This document shows, one piece after another, positions 406 to 8,321 of a DNA stretch of 64,000 nucleotides (positions within the stretch are counted from its first letter, which is position 1; each line of letters begins with the position of its first letter). Both the position numbers and the translations under genes were made by a program. The DNA lies in IMG/VR virus record IMGVR_UViG_3300022856_000004; one strand, given 5' to 3'. The notes under the pieces were generated by a model that saw only the letters and a program-made list of their open reading frames with translations, was not told the origin of the DNA and ran no database searches. The DNA comes from an uncultured virus (IMG/VR IMGVR_UViG_3300022856_000004). Lineage: Duplodnaviria; Heunggongvirae; Uroviricota; Caudoviricetes.

Positions 406-650
406 TTTATACACTCATGTTTTTGCTTTATGAGTTGTTGTAATTCTACATTCTTTTCTGCAACTATTCGTTTACATTCATTTCGGTATATAGTAGCTTT
501 ATCCCATATAGTTTCTTCATATCCGTGCGTTGGAAGCTCATATCTAGTATTTAAAATGGTTTCTAATTCATTTATTACCATTTCACACTCAAATATATCT
601 TTATCAATTCCAGTTAATCCGTCATCGATGGTTGAGTAAAATTGTGTCAT
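402..650 (-). CDS. hypothetical protein
   Basis: 82-aa ORF directly downstream of the promoter at 676-707. Confidence 0.65.
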   Translation of the reverse strand: MTQFYSTIDDGLTGIDKDIFECEMVINELETILNTRYELPTHGYEETIWDKATIYRNECKRIVAEKNVELQQLIKQKHECIK

Positions 651-675
651 ATTAAATCTAATAATTAATAATATA

Positions 676-707
676 CAAACTTACGAAATTAAATTGATAT
701 AAACAAA
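676..707 (-). promoter_or_regulatory. Bacteroidota-type primary-sigma promoter (-33 TTTG, -7 TAAGTTTG)
   Basis: Minus strand TTTG-N20-TAAGTTTG; same spacing recurs at ten other sites. Confidence 0.8.
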
Positions 708-734
708 TTTTATTTTAATGATATGTTAAATTTA

Positions 735-760
735 AAAGTCGAAGTATAGATGTACTTCGA
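735..760 (-). terminator. intrinsic terminator closing tRNA operon B
   Basis: TCGAAGTA/TACTTCGA 8-bp stem followed by CTTTT on the minus strand, just 3' of tRNA-Ser(GCT). Confidence 0.6.
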
Positions 761-765
761 AAATG

Positions 766-850
766 CGGAAATAAAAGGAATCGAACCTTCATCTCGTTTT
801 CACGATTGACTCTTTAGCAAAGAGTTTGCTACACCAATTGCCGTATTTCC
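766..850 (-). tRNA. tRNA-Ser(GCT)
   Basis: Acceptor GGAAATA/TATTTCC, anticodon arm ACTCT-TT GCT AA-AGAGT, long variable arm, T-loop TTCGATT. Confidence 0.85.
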
Positions 851-862
851 ATTTTTTTAGTG

Positions 863-949
863 TACCGGTAGGAAGATTTGAACTTCCAAGTGTATCTTCG
901 TTTACCCACGAGTCTAAATCGCGTGACTTTACCATTTGTCTATACCGGT
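863..949 (-). tRNA. tRNA-Leu(TAG)
   Basis: Acceptor ACCGGTA/TACCGGT, CGCGA-TT TAG AC-TCGTG, long variable arm, GGAAG-TTCAAAT-CTTCC. Confidence 0.85.
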
Positions 950-956
950 AGATTTG

Positions 957-1030
957 TGGACACATATCGGATTTGAACCGATAACCCCCATATTGCAAGT
1001 ATGGTGCTTTCCCAATTAAGCTAATGGCCC
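957..1030 (-). tRNA. tRNA-Ala(TGC), one extra base in the acceptor stem
   Basis: CCATA-CT TGC AA-TATGG; acceptor GGGCCAT/ATGTGTCC keeps G3:U70 but has a bulged T. Confidence 0.8.
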
Positions 1031-1036
1031 ATTATT

Positions 1037-1093
1037 GTATGATATATCATTCATATTATATGGATTATATGTTATATGAATGACATATCATAC
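1037..1093. repeat. long AT-rich inverted repeat between tRNA genes
   Basis: GTATGATAT-A-TCATTCATAT ... ATATGAATGA-C-ATATCATAC, about 20 bp (the mismatch is G-U on the minus strand). Confidence 0.7.
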
Positions 1094-1098
1094 TAATG

Positions 1099-1170
1099 TT
1101 GAGTGGGGTGGGGTCGAACCACCGAATGTCGGCTTCAAAAACCGATGCCTTACCACTTGGCTACCACCCA
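1099..1170 (-). tRNA. tRNA-Gln(TTG)
   Basis: Acceptor TGGGTGG/CCACTCA, D-arm GCC-AAGTGGTAA-GGC, TCGGT-TT TTG AA-GCCGA. Confidence 0.9.
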
Positions 1171-1178
1171 ATATATTG

Positions 1179-1251
1179 TACGAATGAATGGATTCGAACC
1201 ATCACTGAACGAGGTTTAAACTCGATCCCTCTTCCGTTGGGGTACATTCGC
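1179..1251 (-). tRNA. tRNA-Leu(TAA), short variable loop
   Basis: Acceptor GCGAATG/CATTCGT, CGAG-TT TAA AC-CTCG, T-loop TTCGAAT. Confidence 0.85.
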
Positions 1252-1261
1252 ATTTTTGTTG

Positions 1262-1346
1262 TAGGTGGTGAGAGATTCGAACTTAGCTATAGTATGAACT
1301 AACCAGATTTACAGTCTGGCTGGGATCTCCAACTCCCGTACGACGC
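1262..1346 (-). tRNA. tRNA-Tyr(GTA), degenerate (possible pseudogene)
   Basis: Intact CCAGA-CT GTA AA-TCTGG arm, D-arm and TTCGAAT loop, but acceptor and T stems pair poorly. Confidence 0.6.
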
Positions 1347-1353
1347 ATTAAAG

Positions 1354-1440
1354 AGGAAGTTGGGGCAGTCGAAACCCCATTGCCTTATTAGGGGCTTAGC
1401 TGTTTTCAAAACAGTTTGCTACACCAATTGCTGAACTTCC
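1354..1440 (-). tRNA. tRNA-Ser(TGA)
   Basis: Acceptor GGAAGTT/AACTTCC, CTGT-TT TGA AA-ACAG, long variable arm; D region near-identical to the Ser(GCT) copy. Confidence 0.85.
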
Positions 1441-1442
1441 AT

Positions 1443-1482
1443 AAAAAGAAAAAATCTCGTCTATTTTATTAGAGGAGATTTT
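1443..1482 (-). terminator. intrinsic terminator (putative attenuator) immediately 5' of tRNA operon B
   Basis: AAAATCTC-C-TCTA-ATAAAA-TAGA-C-GAGATTTT followed by TTCTTTTT, ending 2 nt before tRNA-Ser(TGA). Confidence 0.75.
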
Positions 1483-1513
1483 ATTTCATATTCATTATAT
1501 AATTTTATTTTAT

Positions 1514-1627
1514 CTAATTAATAACATAAATATCCCCTACCATCGAATCCAGAGCAGTCGCTAACGACCACAATGTGATTGGTTGTAATATACTCGGTTG
1601 TTGATATGTTATTATTGTATTTTTCAT
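1514..1627 (-). CDS. putative attenuator leader peptide 1 (37 aa, MKNTIITYQQPSILQPITLWSLATALDSMVGDIYVIN)
   Basis: Manual translation ATG 1627 to TAG 1514; sits between the shared promoter-like block and the terminator; codons match operon B tRNAs. Confidence 0.65.
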   Translation of the reverse strand: MKNTIITYQQPSILQPITLWSLATALDSMVGDIYVIN

Positions 1628-1634
1628 CTTATAT

Positions 1635-1668
1635 ATAAATAGAGATAAGTTTCTCGTAAATTAATTAT
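1635..1668 (-). promoter_or_regulatory. conserved block upstream of tRNA leader 1 (putative phage-specific promoter)
   Basis: 31/34 nt identical to 4806-4839; minus-strand core TATCTCTATTTAT. Confidence 0.65.
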
Positions 1669-1801
1669 ATCGATATGTTGGACTCGATACCAACAAAAAC
1701 GATTCTCCCACGCACGTCAACCCACATAAAACTTAATCTAATAAGAAGCACTGACTCCTACTTTACTTATGTTAGGCGTGTCTATCTTTCACCAATATCA
1801 A
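1669..1801 (-). ncRNA. tRNA-like RNA with a large insert replacing the anticodon/variable region
   Basis: Acceptor-like TTGATAT/ATATCGA, D-like GTG-AAAGATAGA-CAC, T-like GTTGG-TATCGAGT-CCAAC; about 80 nt between D and T arms. Confidence 0.5.
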
Positions 1802-1807
1802 TATAAA

Positions 1808-2113
1808 TTAATTTACGAGAAACTTTTCTTTATCTAAAGTTGCTAATACCCTATAAAATAAAATCCCATTTTCAGTTTTGAATTGAACCTTAATCGGTCT
1901 AATACTTCTTGTTCCTGTTCTGATGGATTTTGTTACTTGTTCTGTACCATCATTATCTATAAAAGTAAGTTCATATCCCAATTGTTCACCATAGACCATA
2001 GAATCTAAATTAAACTTAGTATCTGTTTCTTCCCAATTACCATATGAAGATATTTCATCTTCCACTGTAGATTCTGTTATGAACCTTTTAAATTTATCGA
2101 ATTCATTTGTCAT
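1808..2113 (-). CDS. hypothetical protein
   Basis: 101-aa ORF, ATGA-coupled to the upstream gene. Confidence 0.7.
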   Translation of the reverse strand: MTNEFDKFKRFITESTVEDEISSYGNWEETDTKFNLDSMVYGEQLGYELTFIDNDGTEQVTKSIRTGTRSIRPIKVQFKTENGILFYRVLATLDKEKFLVN

Positions 2114-3039
2114 TGTACATTCCCTATATATTTAGTGTCTATATGACATCCATCTTGTTCTATATTATCTATGCTTATTATCAATATACTACCGATAACA
2201 TTAAAATAAAACGTAGTATTTTTATTCGTACCTTGTATTTCATATCTAATATTCATATTCTCACTGGTCAACGCTATAGTAGTAGTTGAACCATGAGATT
2301 CACAATTATAGTCATCATGATCATCTTGTATTTCTATAGTTTCAAATCCTACTAAATGAGATTGCAAGAATTGAATTACTTGTTGAAAATTGATTCTTAT
2401 ATTATCAATTAATAAACATGTAGTGTCAGCATCTGGTTTTATATAATCGCTTACTTGTAATTGTTTCGTTTTACCATTATACGACATAAACTTTATATAT
2501 TCATCGTTATAATCATCTTTTATTTTTATAGTTCTTATTTGTTTATGCTCATTATACAATTTAGTATTTATATGTGTTTTTATCTTAGTTAATCTATCAT
2601 TTAAAACTTCATATTTAGACACTAAATCATTTAATACAGATAACCATTCTTCAAATTGACTTATGAATTTATCTATATCTTCTATCGTAGAAATGGAAAA
2701 TGTAATTGATTGTAATTTGTCAAGTTGTTTCCACTTTGGGAATTTGTAAGAATGATACTCATCATAACAACACCCATAACCGTATCTATTGTGTAGACTT
2801 CTAAGTGGTTTAACTTCGATTGTAATTCGTTCGTCATTATTATTATATGTTACATCTATATCACCAAAATCTTGATAATTACCAATTATACTAAAACCGT
2901 CTGTGTTATAGCTATTACGTTCCATAGATTCTGTAATTGCATTCCAAAATAGTTTATTATGTGTTTTATTTCTACATAAATCATATAATATAGTTGTTAA
3001 ACTTATAGTTTTACTTTCATTCTTCTTCTTCCAGAACAT
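2110..3039 (-). CDS. hypothetical protein
   Basis: 309-aa ORF, no recognised motif. Confidence 0.75.
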   Translation of the reverse strand: MFWKKKNESKTISLTTILYDLCRNKTHNKLFWNAITESMERNSYNTDGFSIIGNYQDFGDIDVTYNNNDERITIEVKPLRSLHNRYGYGCCYDEYHSYKFPKWKQLDKLQSITFSISTIEDIDKFISQFEEWLSVLNDLVSKYEVLNDRLTKIKTHINTKLYNEHKQIRTIKIKDDYNDEYIKFMSYNGKTKQLQVSDYIKPDADTTCLLIDNIRINFQQVIQFLQSHLVGFETIEIQDDHDDYNCESHGSTTTIALTSENMNIRYEIQGTNKNTTFYFNVIGSILIISIDNIEQDGCHIDTKYIGNVQ

Positions 3040-3075
3040 TTTTACTCTCTTTTTTTTAATGTATTCTTAATATGT

Positions 3076-3546
3076 CTATTTAACTAAGTCATCTCTTAAT
3101 TTAGTTAAGACCTTTCCTAACAAATTTAAACCTAACCACTGTTCAGGGTCTTGTGCTCTTGGATCATCTTCAAGTAAACCAATACCCCAAATCTTATCAC
3201 ATGGAGAAGCATCAACTAAAGTTTTATCTTTAGTATCAAGTAATTTATTTAATAATTTTTCGTTTTGTGTGAACTTTGCATGGTTTCCTTTATATACAAT
3301 TTCTTCACATACAACTGACCATTTTTCAGCAATGAAATTTGAAACTTCTCTACCTAGTTTCTTCTGTTGTTTTGGATGTAAAGTATTCATAATCTTTGAA
3401 GCAGTTAATTCATCACCAAAGAATAAAGCCTTTTGTTGCATCATATACTGTTCTGTACAATTATACATATCACCATCTATTTCAAATTTACAAGGATGCC
3501 ATTGACTAAATGGCCCTGACCAGAAAAATTCATAATTCTCATTCAT
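3076..3546 (-). CDS. NADAR (YbiA-like) family N-glycosidase
   Basis: FWSGPFSQW, TEQYMMxxKAxxFGD, KxLGRxV, KFTQN, LVDASPxDKIWGIG, GLNLLG motifs. Confidence 0.9.
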   Translation of the reverse strand: MNENYEFFWSGPFSQWHPCKFEIDGDMYNCTEQYMMQQKALFFGDELTASKIMNTLHPKQQKKLGREVSNFIAEKWSVVCEEIVYKGNHAKFTQNEKLLNKLLDTKDKTLVDASPCDKIWGIGLLEDDPRAQDPEQWLGLNLLGKVLTKLRDDLVK

Positions 3547-3582
3547 AATGTTATTTTTTTAATATCGTTTAAAATAATAATA

Positions 3583-3614
3583 CAAACTTACGAAAAAATA
3601 ATGATATAAACAAA
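3583..3614 (-). promoter_or_regulatory. Bacteroidota-type promoter upstream of NADAR
   Basis: TTTG-N20-TAAGTTTG. Confidence 0.8.
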
Positions 3615-3616
3615 TT

Positions 3617-4096
3617 TTATTTTCTATTAGCTATTAAATCAGCTGCACACGTTGCAGCAGGTGCATTTGGTTTTGCAAATACATCAAACCCTAAACTTTT
3701 AAGCCAACCTACAGCCGCAGGATATGCTATATTAGATTTATATTTAGCTTCTGAATTTAAATCGATATGGATTTCTACAGGTTCTTGTAAAATATCTTGT
3801 ATTTCTTCGGCTATACATTTAGATTTCTCTACTTCAGTCCAAAGCATTTCAAATATAGATAATTCTTTTTTATGTTTATCCATAGAATATATTAAATGAG
3901 CACCTTTATTGTATCCATCAGTTCCATAATAAAACATAGCTATCACGGTAACATAAATAACTTTTTTAGATGCCTTCTTATATTTTGAATCCGATCCAAC
4001 TGCTATTTTAGCATCAGGATTCATTTCAATGAATTTCTGAACATGTAAAATCCAATCATCAATTATTTCGTTTGTTTGGAATGTCTTGAAATACAT
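3617..4096 (-). CDS. RNase H-like YkuK (DUF458) family protein
   Basis: VGSDS, YVTVI, GAH, EVEKS, EIHIDLN, KPxAxAAxxAAD motifs. Confidence 0.8.
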   Translation of the reverse strand: MYFKTFQTNEIIDDWILHVQKFIEMNPDAKIAVGSDSKYKKASKKVIYVTVIAMFYYGTDGYNKGAHLIYSMDKHKKELSIFEMLWTEVEKSKCIAEEIQDILQEPVEIHIDLNSEAKYKSNIAYPAAVGWLKSLGFDVFAKPNAPAATCAADLIANRK

Positions 4097-4114
4097 ATAT
4101 ACCTTAGTTTAAAG

Positions 4115-4187
4115 AGGTGAATCCCAGATTCGAACTGGGGTAAACGAGTTTGCAATCCGTTGTCTGAAACCACTCGACTAATTCACC
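4115..4187 (-). tRNA. tRNA-Cys(GCA)
   Basis: Acceptor GGTGAAT/ATTCACC, discriminator U, loop TT GCA AA, CCCAG-TTCGAAT-CTGGG. Confidence 0.85.
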
Positions 4188-4201
4188 ATTATTATATTTT
4201 G

Positions 4202-4273
4202 TACCCAAGGTAGGATTCGAACCTTTATCTCCAATTGGAGGTAGGATAATGTTGCCAATTACACCAAATGTAC
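4202..4273 (-). pseudogene. degenerate tRNA, most like Gly(TCC)
   Basis: D-arm GTGT-AATTGGCA-ACAT and AGG-TTCGAAT-CCT present; TCCTA-CC TCC AA-TTGGA arm imperfect; acceptor stem does not pair. Confidence 0.5.
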
Positions 4274-4285
4274 ATTTCTAACGAG

Positions 4286-4359
4286 TTGACCTGGACGGAC
4301 TTGAACCGTCGATCTTCGAATTATGAGTTCGCTGCTTTGACCAACTAAGCTACAGATCA
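4286..4359 (-). tRNA. tRNA-CAT (probably Ile2, lysidine-modified; elongator Met not excluded)
   Basis: Acceptor TGATCTG/CAGGTCA, CGAA-CT CAT AA-TTCG, lacks the three G-C pairs of initiators. Confidence 0.8.
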
Positions 4360-4366
4360 ATATTTG

Positions 4367-4441
4367 GGTGAATGATGGGCTACGATCCCACGACCTTCGG
4401 TTTCACAGACCGACGCTCTAACCAACTGAGCTACAAACACC
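4367..4441 (-). tRNA. tRNA-His(GTG) with encoded G-1
   Basis: TCGGT-CT GTG AA-ACCGA, G-1:C73; two T-T mismatches in the acceptor and atypical T-loop ATCGTAG. Confidence 0.8.
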
Positions 4442-4452
4442 ATAATAAAAAG

Positions 4453-4536
4453 TTGCGGAAGACAGATTCGAACTGTCATTATACTTCTCGTCTCTGGGTT
4501 ATGAGCCCAGGATGTTAACCATTACACCATTCCGCA
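4453..4536 (-). tRNA. initiator-like tRNA-Met(CAT) with a 16-nt variable loop
   Basis: CTGGG-CT CAT AA-CCCAG (three G-C pairs), acceptor TGCGGAA/TTCCGCA, variable region AGACGAGAAGTATAAT. Confidence 0.8.
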
Positions 4537-4544
4537 ATAACTTG

Positions 4545-4617
4545 TGATCTTACAGGAACTCGAATCCTGATTGCAACTTCGAATGAGTTGTGTCCTAACC
4601 ATTTAGACGATAAGACC
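4545..4617 (-). tRNA. tRNA-Glu(TTC) with atypical anticodon loop (A33, G37)
   Basis: Acceptor GGTCTTA/TAAGATC, Glu-type D-arm GTCT-AAATGGTTA-GGAC, CAACT-CA TTC GA-AGTTG. Confidence 0.75.
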
Positions 4618-4624
4618 GAATTAT

Positions 4625-4664
4625 AAATAAAAAATCCTTCAGTGTTTTAAGTTGAAGGATTTTT
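4625..4664 (-). terminator. intrinsic terminator (putative attenuator) immediately 5' of tRNA operon A
   Basis: AAAAATCCTTCA/TGAAGGATTTTT stem followed by TATTT, ending a few nt before tRNA-Glu. Confidence 0.75.
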
Positions 4665-4690
4665 ATAAATTTTTAGAAATGAATTTATTA

Positions 4691-4777
4691 TTATGCCCTT
4701 CGTACATACACCCCAAACCCACACTCAACGTGTATATTAGGTCTAAAGCTATTCATATGTTTATTATTACGAGTCAT
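4691..4777 (-). CDS. putative attenuator leader peptide 2 (28 aa, MTRNNKHMNSFRPNIHVECGFGVYVRRA)
   Basis: Manual translation ATG 4777 to TAA 4691; same promoter-leader-terminator-tRNA layout as 1443-1668. Confidence 0.65.
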   Translation of the reverse strand: MTRNNKHMNSFRPNIHVECGFGVYVRRA

Positions 4778-4805
4778 TATTATCTTTTTAATTTTACTTC
4801 TATTA

Positions 4806-4839
4806 ATAAATAGAGATACGTTTTTTGTAAATTAATTAT
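4806..4839 (-). promoter_or_regulatory. conserved block upstream of tRNA leader 2 (putative phage-specific promoter)
   Basis: 31/34 nt identical to 1635-1668. Confidence 0.65.
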
Positions 4840-6944
4840 TATTTTATATATTTTGAATTTATAGTTAGAACATCACTTGCTCTAACAACATTTTTATTAT
4901 CTAACGTATCATCCTCATACTCATCCGTAACATATAGCATATCAGCGTTATCAATGTCAAATGTTAATTGTGATGGTGCATAGTACATACTAAATAAGTC
5001 TTTTAATGTAGTTTTATCAGTTAGATTAACTATAGACCTTAACACATCAGATACATTCACATCATTATTGATAACTGTGTTATGATGCATACCACCATTT
5101 CTAAAATATAAATCAGTCCAGATTATCTGTTTAGTTTCAATATCAAAGATAAATGGAACTGCTACCTTAGAATTTCCATCTAATTTCATAGAATACTTAA
5201 CTGTTTTAGGATCATAAATCTCATTTGAATTAGGACGTTCTCTTAGCATAAAACCTGCGAAACATTCTTTATGTTCTTTAAATGTTGGGCCACTATAAAC
5301 ATTTATATTTAATGTTATATATCTAACTTCTGATTTTACTACTTTATTCATAGTTATATCAATAAATTCAGATGCTCCATTTGGTGCTCGTGTAATATCA
5401 CCAGAATGTACTATTTCTAATTCTTTAATTTTTAATTGTTGAAATGAACAATGAGTTACCATTTCAAATTTATCATTATATAATGTAGCTGACAAATCAA
5501 TATCTTGTCCTATCCAATGACAAAACATTCGTAAAGTTATATTTTTATTTTTATCTTCTAAATCAATCTTAGATCCTCTACCATAAGAGAATTGACCTTC
5601 CGATACACTTCTTTGTTGTGTAGGTAATGTATATTGACTTAATCTTTCATCTATATATACTTTCTTACCTTCTGACGTTCCTTGTAATCTCAATCTTAAA
5701 TGTGAGTTTATACAATTTAGATAGTCTTGTACTAATTGCAATTGCCAATCTGTAAATTTCTTAAATTGCACTCTTCTAACTTTAGATGTAGAACCTTTAG
5801 GAAATACTAATCTACTATCATAACCTTTTAATATAACTTGTAAGTGTCCTTTAGCTTGTAATAATACTCGTGTTGATACTTCTGATATACATTCTTCTAA
5901 ATTATCAATACCTAATTTACCAGAGTTATATCCATCAGAGATATTAATTAAAGTTACTATGTTTCTTACGTATTCACCTGGTTTCTTCATTAGAGAATTA
6001 ATAGCTGAATGATAGTCTTTATTTTTTAAAGATTCATTTATAATAGTGCTTAAACTCTCTACATTTTTATTATTTCTAAATGATCTCAATACATCTGAAA
6101 ATTTGGATTGTTTTAGAAATTCACCACAATGTAATGAATGTGTTAATTTAATCCATTTATTTTTATGTCTCTTGAAGTCATCTACGTTAAACACTTTATC
6201 AAGTCTATTAGTTATTCTACGTCTAAGACTTTTAGATAATGATTTAAACTTGGTATTTTCAGTTAATGATACATCACCACCAGATAGATATGTACAGTAA
6301 CGTAGTATATCAGTTGGTGTTTTGAGTAATTCTAAATTATCAGTATATTCAACTACATAACATAAGTTTTCTTTATATGGAATATTTATAGTATTAATAT
6401 CATATATCTCTCCAAAGTGAGCTATTAATACCTTAACTGATTCCTTATCGAAATCAGATAGAGAATCATTAGTAGATAATAAATCACATAATATTTCTAT
6501 CATACCATTAATATCTATTATACCTATACGTTTGAAGTTTAATACGTCAATATCAGTTTGTCTTGGCTTTTTATCTATATCTGGATAGTATTCGCCTAAT
6601 GACAAATAATGTATTATAGCGTTAAAGTATAGCTCAAATTCAGACATATTATAAACTTCTTCTGGGAAGTTTGGATAAAATGTTTTATATGAACGTGCAC
6701 CTTTAAATTCTTCCAATATAAAAATTATATCAATTAAATTTAAGTTATATCGTAATACAAGTTTAAGTAAATGAGAATCTATCGTATAACCCAAATTATT
6801 CAATATTTGGTTATATGCTATAGTCTCTTTTATTGATTGTTTGTAATTATTAATATCAATATCTTCTAATACTGTAGAAGATGAGTCCATTATGAATATA
6901 GATGATCTATATTTTAATGCTATTTTTAATAGGTCTTTATTCAT
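4839..6944 (-). CDS. alpha-helical ROT/TROVE-like repeat protein with C-terminal TerD-like domain
   Basis: N-terminal FYPNFPxEV...LYFNAIIHY, TPTDILR...SGGDVSL, KPGEYVR; C-terminal RMFCHW, DIDLSA, HSGDITRAPNGASEFIDI. Matches the TROVE-like+TerD architecture described for Prok-RING_4-associated proteins; no RING cysteines seen. Confidence 0.75.
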   Translation of the reverse strand: MNKDLLKIALKYRSSIFIMDSSSTVLEDIDINNYKQSIKETIAYNQILNNLGYTIDSHLLKLVLRYNLNLIDIIFILEEFKGARSYKTFYPNFPEEVYNMSEFELYFNAIIHYLSLGEYYPDIDKKPRQTDIDVLNFKRIGIIDINGMIEILCDLLSTNDSLSDFDKESVKVLIAHFGEIYDINTINIPYKENLCYVVEYTDNLELLKTPTDILRYCTYLSGGDVSLTENTKFKSLSKSLRRRITNRLDKVFNVDDFKRHKNKWIKLTHSLHCGEFLKQSKFSDVLRSFRNNKNVESLSTIINESLKNKDYHSAINSLMKKPGEYVRNIVTLINISDGYNSGKLGIDNLEECISEVSTRVLLQAKGHLQVILKGYDSRLVFPKGSTSKVRRVQFKKFTDWQLQLVQDYLNCINSHLRLRLQGTSEGKKVYIDERLSQYTLPTQQRSVSEGQFSYGRGSKIDLEDKNKNITLRMFCHWIGQDIDLSATLYNDKFEMVTHCSFQQLKIKELEIVHSGDITRAPNGASEFIDITMNKVVKSEVRYITLNINVYSGPTFKEHKECFAGFMLRERPNSNEIYDPKTVKYSMKLDGNSKVAVPFIFDIETKQIIWTDLYFRNGGMHHNTVINNDVNVSDVLRSIVNLTDKTTLKDLFSMYYAPSQLTFDIDNADMLYVTDEYEDDTLDNKNVVRASDVLTINSKYIK

Positions 6945-6969
6945 TTAAAGATTTCCTTATTATTAAATA

Positions 6970-7108
6970 TTAAATTGTGATTATGAAATCGTTTTATACT
7001 TCTGCTCTACCAACTGAGCTACTAACCGATTATTACGATTAGGTAGGACTCGAACCTACGACCTGAAGTTCCTTAATGTTAGAAGTATGATTTCATATAG
7101 CAATTTAA
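6970..7108 (-). ncRNA. Y-RNA-like unit 1 containing a circularly permuted tRNA domain (YrlA topology)
   Basis: Terminal stem TTAAATTG/CAATTTAA plus a 9-bp inner stem enclose T-arm, loop-closed acceptor stem and D-arm (6998-7069). Confidence 0.8.
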
Positions 7109-7117
7109 GTAAAAAAT

Positions 7118-7179
7118 GTCTGTAATTGAAATTTCGATTAATATCCAAAATTATAGAAGTATGAAATTTCATAGCAGAC
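7118..7179 (-). ncRNA. Y-RNA-like unit 2
   Basis: GTCTG-CTA-TGAAATTTC-ATACTTCTA...C-GAAATTTCA-ATTA-CAGAC. Confidence 0.7.
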
Positions 7180-7200
7180 TTAAATTAATTTTAAAAGAAA

Positions 7201-7268
7201 GGGTTGTAATTATAAAAACGTAGTTTGCGTTTTGTATATTTTAGAAGTATGTTTCTATATAGCAACCC
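7201..7268 (-). ncRNA. Y-RNA-like unit 3
   Basis: GGGTTG-CTA-TATAGAAAC-ATACTTCTA...C-GTTTTTATA-ATTA-CAACCC; G-U wobble only on the minus strand. Confidence 0.7.
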
Positions 7269-7275
7269 ATAGTAT

Positions 7276-7351
7276 TATTTGTAATTGATATTTCGTTTCT
7301 TGTTATATTCATGGTATAGTAGTTTAGAAGTATGAAATATCATAGCAAACA
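7276..7351 (-). ncRNA. Y-RNA-like unit 4
   Basis: TGTTTG-CTA-TGATATTTC-ATACTTCTA...C-GAAATATCA-ATTA-CAAATA. Confidence 0.7.
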
Positions 7352-7383
7352 GTTTAATTTTTATTTTGTGTCAATTCTTAATA

Positions 7384-7415
7384 CAAACTTACGAAAAAGA
7401 AATGACATATCCTAA
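7384..7415 (-). promoter_or_regulatory. Bacteroidota-type promoter driving the RNA array and TROVE-like/TerD gene
   Basis: TTAG-N20-TAAGTTTG, about 30 nt upstream of unit 4. Confidence 0.75.
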
Positions 7416-7424
7416 TTTTATTTT

Positions 7425-8321
7425 TTAGTCAAATAACTTATCTATAATTTTAGCTACATAAGTAGAATTAATATCTTCTTTCTTAGAATCTTGTAATATA
7501 TCTACTAACGCATACATATATGCTTGATCAACACCAGTTAATTGTTCAGTTAAGACATTAATATCAGACATATCTATTTCAGATATTTGCCACATTATTT
7601 TTAATTGTTCTCCAGCAGATATTCTCCAACCACGTTCTAAGAACTTCTTAGTTCTAAATATAGATGCTATTGGATATAAACTACCTTTATATACTAAAGT
7701 CCTCGATAACAAGCATTCTAATGCTTCTGGGTGCAATACCAACGTATCATTATCATAATCATAATAATTCATAGCATGAACAAAATCATAATTACTATGG
7801 ATAGTTTGTGGATCACCATAAAATCTAGTTACTAATTGAATCTTATCTGTTAATGTTATAGCATTACTTGATATGAACACAGGTGCATATTTACCATTTT
7901 CATCTGTAACAAAATCACCGAAATCATCAGAATCTGTTTCATTTGTTACGATACCCTTACCACCTCTTGCTTCAATATAAACTCTATCTTCATCTACACC
8001 TTTAATATTACAAATAGACTTTTCAATTACATTCATAGGAACTTCATCTAATTTATTAGATACTCTAATACTATTTAATTTATTAATGTAATATTTAGCT
8101 ACTTGTATATTGCAATCTTTAGTTTTAAAATATATATCATAATCATTTACTGGATCACCTAATAACATAGATGCTATAGAGCCACCAGTTACGATTGTAT
8201 TTTTTCTACATAATTTTTGTATATTCTCATCATCTATACTATCTATCCAATTAGATACTTTTTTATTTAGTTCCTTTCTGATACCTGATTTCTTTCTACC
8301 ATATTTAATATCTACACTCAT
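7425..8321 (-). CDS. Pol-beta-superfamily nucleotidyltransferase-like protein
   Basis: IVTGGSIAS...NDYDIYF (GG/S..DxD signature), SxNAITL, YDFVH, RxxKFxxRGW. Confidence 0.7.
   Translation of the reverse strand: MSVDIKYGRKKSGIRKELNKKVSNWIDSIDDENIQKLCRKNTIVTGGSIASMLLGDPVNDYDIYFKTKDCNIQVAKYYINKLNSIRVSNKLDEVPMNVIEKSICNIKGVDEDRVYIEARGGKGIVTNETDSDDFGDFVTDENGKYAPVFISSNAITLTDKIQLVTRFYGDPQTIHSNYDFVHAMNYYDYDNDTLVLHPEALECLLSRTLVYKGSLYPIASIFRTKKFLERGWRISAGEQLKIMWQISEIDMSDINVLTEQLTGVDQAYMYALVDILQDSKKEDINSTYVAKIIDKLFD

Follow-up and report, generated by a model that had tools for sequence, protein, structure and literature searches.

The window analyzed here (the whole 64-kb stretch of DNA) is the start of a 134,590-base virus record that is linear, has a G+C content of 28%, and is approximately 69% complete. 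The family-B DNA polymerase and ribonucleotide reductase of this record matched phage families, and the sequencing runs containing it carry the label salt lake metagenome. Two tRNA arrays are found in the window, both preceded by a short predicted leader ORF and a terminator-like hairpin, and the leaders, hairpins, and tRNA arrays discussed below are all on the minus strand. The features around the first array, together with the second copy of its promoter-like element, are as follows:

1635..1663, minus strand: promoter-like element of leader 1, whose end is a variant of the TATATTTAT motif seen across the phage
4806..4834, minus strand: second copy of the promoter-like element, a repeat of the one at leader 1, upstream of leader 2
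1514..1627, minus strand: leader ORF 1, a predicted ORF of 37 codons
1603..1614, minus strand: possible segment 1, a candidate anti-antiterminator pairing with 1534-1519, not beyond chance
1554..1571, minus strand: 7-bp hairpin within leader 1, from folding
1441..1482, minus strand: intrinsic-terminator-like hairpin and U-rich tail adjoining the first tRNA (12 bp, -9.7 kcal/mol)
765..1440, minus strand: tRNA array 1, namely, Ser(UGA), Tyr(GUA), Leu(UAA), Gln(UUG), Ala(UGC), Leu(UAG), and Ser(GCU), from ARAGORN
739..760, minus strand: terminator-like hairpin closing array 1, from the terminator scan

The order of these elements is of the attenuator type, with the promoter-like motif at 1663-1635, the ORF at 1627-1514, and the first tRNA at 1440. 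The arms of the predicted terminator (1482-1470 and 1463-1451) contain one C-C mismatch, and its U-rich tail (1450-1441) ends beside the tRNA-Ser gene. This hairpin was not among the hits of a simple terminator scan, and the 146-nt region as a whole folds only modestly better than shuffled sequences (z of -2.1). Within array 1, tRNA-Ser(UGA) and tRNA-Tyr were called by ARAGORN at a lowered threshold only, and the last five tRNAs were confirmed by Rfam. The small hairpin inside leader 1 is possibly a polymerase pause hairpin. Array 1 has, between its tRNA-Gln and tRNA-Ala genes (1037-1093), an AT-rich inverted repeat of 25 bp that may be a processing or pause site.

Both promoter-like elements lie within a 60-nt repeat (1609-1668 and 4780-4839, 78% alike). 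The pattern derived from the two copies matched only those two places in 134.6 kb, and its reversed control had 0 matches. In this phage record, the 40 nt preceding ORF starts are enriched in TATTTAT, and the TATATTTAT motif appears just upstream of many phage genes, sometimes only 4 to 5 nt from the AUG. Since the core of the element resembles TATATTTAT, leader 1 is probably nearly leaderless, and the position of the element would leave a 5' untranslated region (UTR) of about 4 nt. A sigma-70 promoter scan was rejected as a guide (36 sites versus 41 expected). The sequence TAAGTTTG sits on the minus strand within an element repeated three times (repeat D1), and because it fits the Bacteroidota -7 box, TAnnTTTG, as given in PMC9723704, the host of the phage is likely a member of the Bacteroidota. 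The same paper reports leader-peptide attenuation as likely in Flavobacterium. Upstream of leader 1, an inverted repeat with arms at approximately 1636-1678 and approximately 1793-1835 (minus strand) encloses approximately 115 nt and folds at a z of -5.8, with no match in Rfam. One of the arms is the promoter element itself, so RNA reading through from upstream would form a long hairpin at 1636-1835.

The end of leader ORF 1 can pair with the 5' arm of the terminator, and the two strands involved are the following:

1526..1542, minus strand: predicted 5' strand of the antiterminator, codons 29 to 34, from folding
1470..1484, minus strand: predicted shared strand, both 3' strand of the antiterminator and 5' arm of the terminator, from folding

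An earlier note on this DNA had described codons 31 to 34 (1537-1526) as pairing with 1484-1474 over 11 bp that include a bulged A and a G-U pair. This pairing was recovered with a duplex energy of -7.1 kcal/mol; the alternative helix stands, but its length was too short, as it extends to 15 bp (1542-1526 with 1484-1470, -10.4 kcal/mol) and so takes up the entire terminator 5' arm. The 15-bp helix is found in both the minimum-energy and the centroid folds of transcripts without the terminator 3' arm. Its pairing probability of 0.91 was matched by 2 of 300 synonymous recodings and by 1 of 300 base shuffles of the last 48 nt, and its duplex energy was matched by 8 of 300 recodings, 8 of 300 shuffles, and 10 of 3,000 random 48-mers from the genome. 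When the tails of 25 foreign leaders were compared, none paired equally well with the terminator arm of leader 1. An assembly error at this point is unlikely because contigs of two further runs (spans 1338-1992 and 1471-1661) have identical antiterminator strands. No variants of leader 1, and hence no covariation in the helix, were found where it was covered among eight sequencing runs. A protein search of viral contigs for close relatives returned only a copy of the same locus, and blastn matches to named phages were confined to tRNA bodies.

The behavior of the two helices was modeled by folding the RNA with ribosome and polymerase footprints of assumed size. The polarity that had been claimed is the one predicted. 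A ribosome at the stop codon lowers the antiterminator to 0.01 to 0.27, and stalls in codons 4 to 26 keep it at 0.75 to 0.92 until the 3' arm of the terminator leaves the polymerase. With the RNA masked up to the front of the ribosome, the values are 0.80 to 0.92 for A-site codons 4 to 25 and 0.01 at the stop. At full-length equilibrium, however, the alternative helix is not competitive and the terminator prevails in every state (0.5 to 0.87). The switch must therefore be kinetic and decided during transcription. Hiding the last 12 nt in a polymerase at the U tract, with the 5' RNA masked, gave 0.86 for the antiterminator and 0.03 for the terminator in a stalled leader; with the last 12 nt hidden and the ribosome at the stop, the values were 0.00 and 0.59. 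If only the last 9 nt are hidden, the terminator wins throughout (0.52 to 0.80).

If the RNA behind the ribosome is also free to pair, a third helix forms (1614-1603 with 1534-1519, -13.6 kcal/mol), a stability matched by 80 of 1,000 shuffles. In its presence the antiterminator is predicted at 0.64 to 0.91 in untranslated and stalled RNA until the free end reaches 1458, versus 0.21 at the stop. Three bases farther, it persists only for stalls at codons 6 to 16 or with the 5' RNA covered. At that last step, the refolding of the 5' RNA tips stalls at codons 18 to 26 to the terminator, with the antiterminator at 0.01 to 0.23 for codons 20 to 26 (in this model, unchanged leader 1 is already at 0.04 at codon 22), and masking the 5' RNA, as a queued ribosome would, gives 0.75 to 0.91 in the late-stall states. 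The only Ala, Ser-UCG, and Leu-CUG codons of leader 1 lie within codons 20 to 26, and for this reason the model needs either slow refolding or a queued second ribosome. Plain read-through of untranslated RNA also had to be qualified once the 5' RNA was kept in the model. Within these limits, the antiterminator and the terminator exclude each other in the folding models, and which of them forms depends on where the ribosome stands.

The second tRNA array is preceded by a similar arrangement:

4691..4777, minus strand: leader ORF 2, a predicted ORF of 28 codons (with two His, Met, Glu, and Cys)
4621..4664, minus strand: terminator-like hairpin of leader 2, from folding (listed by the terminator scan on the plus strand)
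4114..4617, minus strand: tRNA array 2, namely, Glu(UUC), two CAU tRNAs, His(GUG), a degenerate tRNA-like stretch, and Cys(GCA), from Rfam and ARAGORN

The degenerate stretch (4197-4270, minus strand) had no ARAGORN or Rfam call and could be read as Gly-UCC or Trp-CCA. Between the two arrays (3076-4096, minus strand) are genes for a YkuK/DUF458 RNase H-like protein and a NADAR protein, the former of which adjoins tRNA arrays in many related loci. The tail of leader 2 pairs weakly with the next hairpin (duplex of -7.8). Its predicted antiterminator is weak, taking roughly half of the arm until the 3' arm emerges and not exceeding 0.05 at the decision point.

The Leu, Ser, Ala, and Gln codons that had been singled out as stalling sites are indeed, together with Tyr, codons of the tRNAs downstream from leader 1. 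Its codons 8 to 26 include Tyr, three Gln, Ser (AGU and UCG), Leu (UUA twice, UUG, and CUG), and two Ala, with Gln-Gln as the sole tandem run of control codons. Array 1 reads 12 of the 23 codons from 4 to 26 of leader 1, and array 2 reads 0; for the 19 codons from 4 to 22 of leader 2, the counts are 5 for array 2 and 1 for array 1, a reciprocal match with a Fisher P value of 0.0007. All seven anticodon classes of array 1, with both Leu and both Ser codon boxes, are represented in codons 4 to 26 of leader 1. Such coverage is achieved by 255 of 35,662 genome windows of 23 codons, and 55 of them equal leader 1 in both match count and seven-class coverage. Relative to the codon use of the genome alone, leaders 1 and 2 are modestly enriched in matched codons (P values of 0.012 and 0.045, respectively). 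The other 11 of the 23 codons (Thr, Ile, Pro, and Trp) are unread by array 1; four of them belong to the A-rich start of the ORF, a part in which Leu, Lys, Thr, Asn, and Ile prevail throughout the family.

A wider family of such leaders was recovered by a structural screen in which codons were not used for selection. A total of 613 loci were fetched, 472 of them with tRNA genes, providing 1,978 tRNA cluster starts. Successive steps kept 147 starts with a terminator, 93 with a short ORF, 84 with a spacer of 15 to 45 nt, 68 nonredundant ones, and finally 56 with at least three tRNAs. This set includes leader 1 and is incomplete, since leader 2 was missed by the strict screen. The leader sequences diverge and the fold recurs, with a spacing of 23 to 37 nt between stop and hairpin in 51 of 56 leaders. 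Pairing of the ORF tail with the 5' arm of the terminator reaches a probability of at least 0.4 in 51 of the 56 leaders, versus 49 of 152 other terminators from the same loci. Own tails exceed the foreign-tail mean in 48 of 56 leaders and all 25 foreign tails in only 16 of 56 (averages of 0.70 for own and 0.46 for swapped tails); foreign tails often pair too because many leader tails are G rich. At the decision point, the mean predicted antiterminator was 0.55 in untranslated RNA, 0.61 to 0.67 in stalled states, and 0.25 at the stop. The third helix, which would act as a protector, was in the best tenth for 6 of 45 members and is not a family trait. RNAalifold, applied to four related leaders, returned the antiterminator as the consensus, with a two-sided change in only 1 of 34 pairs, an uninformative result. 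A bacterial control (120 genome loci with 161 tRNA cluster starts) yielded nine terminators, two of them with a short ORF; these 2 of 161 starts and the 84 of 1,978 viral and metagenome starts come from sets that differ in make-up, and phage specificity is not claimed.

The hairpin might alternatively be a plain leaky terminator, or a processing hairpin, that fixes the tRNA level, with the ORF and the alternative helix arising by chance in AT-rich DNA. The prevalence of the terminator at equilibrium and the 49 of 152 unrelated terminators that also pair with an upstream frame at 0.4 or more would fit this explanation. We nevertheless hold it to be extremely improbable, given that the helix controls matched in only 1 or 2 of 300 cases, that two leaders share one promoter element and match their arrays reciprocally in codons, and that the arrangement recurs with fixed spacing in 56 leaders.

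The codon match also extends to the family. In the 44 untruncated units with at most 12 amino acids, the share of codons read by the own array was 0.58, versus 0.32 when permuted (z of 12.3, 0 of 20,000 permutations). Eleven loci have two or three leaders each. In 28 of the 30 ordered pairs from them, which are nonindependent, a leader carried more of the private amino acids of its array than its sibling did, the remainder being one loss and one empty comparison. Leaders upstream of complete arrays use 19 or 20 amino acids (Spearman coefficient of 0.55, n = 51).

These data bear on a second alternative, in which the attenuator is real but acts as a general sensor of translation rate. Any slowing (antibiotic, ribosome shut-off, or failed initiation) would open the switch, codon identity would be minor, and the unmatched codons would be relics of an all-amino-acid leader. 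That 11 of 23 codons of leader 1 are unmatched is compatible with such a sensor. So is the antiterminator predicted on untranslated RNA, both here (0.64 to 0.85 until the 3' arm of the terminator emerges) and in 40 of 56 family members. L351, the other leader most like this one (best of 77 compared, 0 of 500 shuffles), precedes a 26-tRNA region. However, the preference of leaders for their own array over the sibling array, in this phage and in the ordered pairs, needs selection on codon identity. We therefore regard a general sensor as unlikely, and it is in any case compatible with a codon-matched switch, which would also open under general stalling.

The switch had originally been called starvation-ON. 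The ON polarity agrees with the folding models, although "tRNA-shortage-ON" seems to fit better because the regulated genes are tRNAs. The signal is likely a shortage of decoding-competent tRNA, which goes beyond amino acid starvation alone. Under the alternative, the switch would sense uncharged tRNA during starvation and not tRNA loss, and the extra tRNA would capture scarce amino acids. A stalled ribosome is blind to the cause of stalling, as established for attenuators, and the matching of isoacceptors is weak and nonsignificant family by family (P values of 0.30 for Ser, 0.08 for Leu, and 0.21 for Arg). On the other hand, when the three families are pooled, the codons follow the isoacceptor present by 39 to 17 (Cochran-Mantel-Haenszel [CMH] P value of 0.024, pooled after the fact). 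Leader 1, moreover, carries both Leu and both Ser boxes as array 1 does, and more tRNA would presumably be no cure for a missing amino acid. Phage tRNAs have also been shown to counter tRNA-cutting defenses (PMC11555353). The chances of starvation sensing, which has the same mechanics and rivals our reading on purpose, thus appear very slim.

Our preferred interpretation, to which we give a probability of roughly 0.8, is that the pairing at 1443-1537 is the antiterminator/terminator switch of a ribosome-controlled attenuator gating seven phage tRNA genes. The computed support consists of the order of the elements, the 15-bp alternative helix and its incompatibility with the terminator, the match in codons, and the recurrence of the design in many other phages, and from it we infer the translation, termination, induction, and purpose of the attenuator. 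The host polymerase would start a few bases before the AUG, with a ribosome following it. With an ample supply of Ser, Tyr, Leu, Gln, and Ala aminoacyl-tRNAs, the ribosome would advance to codons 28 to 38 and cover 1542-1526, and the terminator would fold and end transcription before tRNA-Ser. If one of the matched tRNAs were scarce (cut, degraded, or uncharged), the ribosome would lag at or before codon 26, the antiterminator would form once 1484-1470 leaves the polymerase, and array 1 would be transcribed. The new tRNAs would then shut off their own synthesis again. Leader 2 would act likewise for the Glu/Met/His/Cys array.

It has long been asked why phages have tRNA genes, and recent work connects them with tRNA-cutting defenses. 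Since the output of the switch is tRNA, an answer to tRNA loss caused by host nucleases is a likelier purpose than starvation, two conditions that the ribosome cannot distinguish. A codon-matched attenuator would mean that the phage gauges how well particular codons are decoded and responds by making the corresponding tRNAs. Going further, we would give even odds to the idea that large phages audit the host tRNA pool codon by codon, with one test peptide per tRNA block, and make replacements only for the class destroyed by a host anticodon nuclease. If this is true, it would be an inducible and self-limiting counterdefense, and the partitioning of the arrays would record the classes of tRNA attacked together by host defenses. 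A codon-matched attenuator would also extend attenuation from amino acid genes to tRNA genes. The 190-nt element, with two versions of opposite specificity in one genome, would be a ready reporter for tRNA depletion during infection.

Among known systems, trpL, hisL, and thrL are leader-peptide transcription attenuators of amino acid operons, and Escherichia coli pheM-pheST is an attenuator of an aminoacyl-tRNA synthetase gene. Leader 1 would work like the thr/ilv-type multivalent attenuators and those of synthetases but, with tRNAs as its regulated genes, belongs to none of their operon families; membership in the trpL, hisL, thrL, and ilvL biosynthetic families was rejected, as the downstream genes are neither amino acid-making nor amino acid-charging. 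It shares a short ORF and an antiterminator opposed to an intrinsic terminator with thrL, the ilvGMEDA leader, and the Corynebacterium ilvBNC upstream ORF (uORF), according to PMC11109978 and PMC11857589. In all of them, stalling at control codons is predicted to give read-through, and one leader senses several amino acids. Unlike them, leader 1 regulates phage tRNAs rather than biosynthetic enzymes, and its control codons are dispersed, with one to three per tRNA, whereas amino acid operon attenuators have tandem runs. Another difference is that the ORF tail itself is the antiterminator strand, with no protector helix as a family trait. The cysS uORF of Rhodobacterales is a further attenuator of a synthetase gene, as described in PMC8632094. 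Here, as in pheM-pheST and, by prediction, leader 1, the ribosome senses charged tRNA and raises a charging or decoding component, although the output of leader 1 is tRNA itself, for five amino acids and seven anticodons, and it is phage borne. Full-text searches of the main text of open papers found no report of attenuation of tRNA genes; supplementary motif tables could hold such leaders unlabeled.

A T-box riboswitch has reportedly been found upstream of tRNA-Asn genes in Clostridium. As in leader 1, tRNA status drives the choice between terminator and antiterminator in T-boxes, but they bind tRNA directly, while the input of leader 1 is a reading frame. No T-box or riboswitch was detected at the Rfam gathering score, and no T-box was found at E values of up to 1 across positions 600-7600. 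The Anabaena trn operon under TrcR resembles array 1 as a spare tRNA array that is silent until translation stress, but it is controlled by a protein repressor at initiation, with no codon-specific input, and the word "attenuation" is absent from that paper (PMC10272220). In a T5-like phage, a tRNA-rich region counters retron Eco7 and PrrC, with rescue depending on expression level, which is similar to the phage described here in that tRNA supply matters when the host cuts tRNA. In contrast to the attenuator proposed here, the expression of those tRNAs is explained by a strong promoter only, and "attenuat" is absent from the text of the paper (PMC11555353).

Several other observations concern the wider set of loci. 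A promoter-like box was found 4 to 10 nt before the start in 18 of 54 family leaders examined, and 28 had no box by the pattern used; the box-to-start distance suggests leaderless mRNAs in many of them. Arrays seem to be split by tRNA class: at L131:1478 and L136:3895, one block holds Phe, Tyr, Ser, Trp, Cys, and Leu, mostly readers of U-starting codons, and L165:3974 and array 1 of the window gather the long-arm tRNAs Ser, Leu, and Tyr. A scan that used the unusual D-arm of tRNA-Ser returned 120 loci and one candidate. Two leader ORFs containing all amino acids (L003:6070-6333 and L012:5850-6115) precede 25-tRNA arrays; their hairpins have no U tract, and they were read by eye as a different build outside the structural screen. 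Finally, in the window itself, a permuted tRNA-like stretch (7000-7067, minus strand) matched the Rfam family YrlA with 37.9 bits and an E value of 1e-5, below the gathering score of 69. It is preceded by four 28-nt repeats (7076-7348) and followed by a 701-amino-acid ORF (6944-4839, phrog_33734), and it is possibly a Y-RNA-like RNA with a protein partner.
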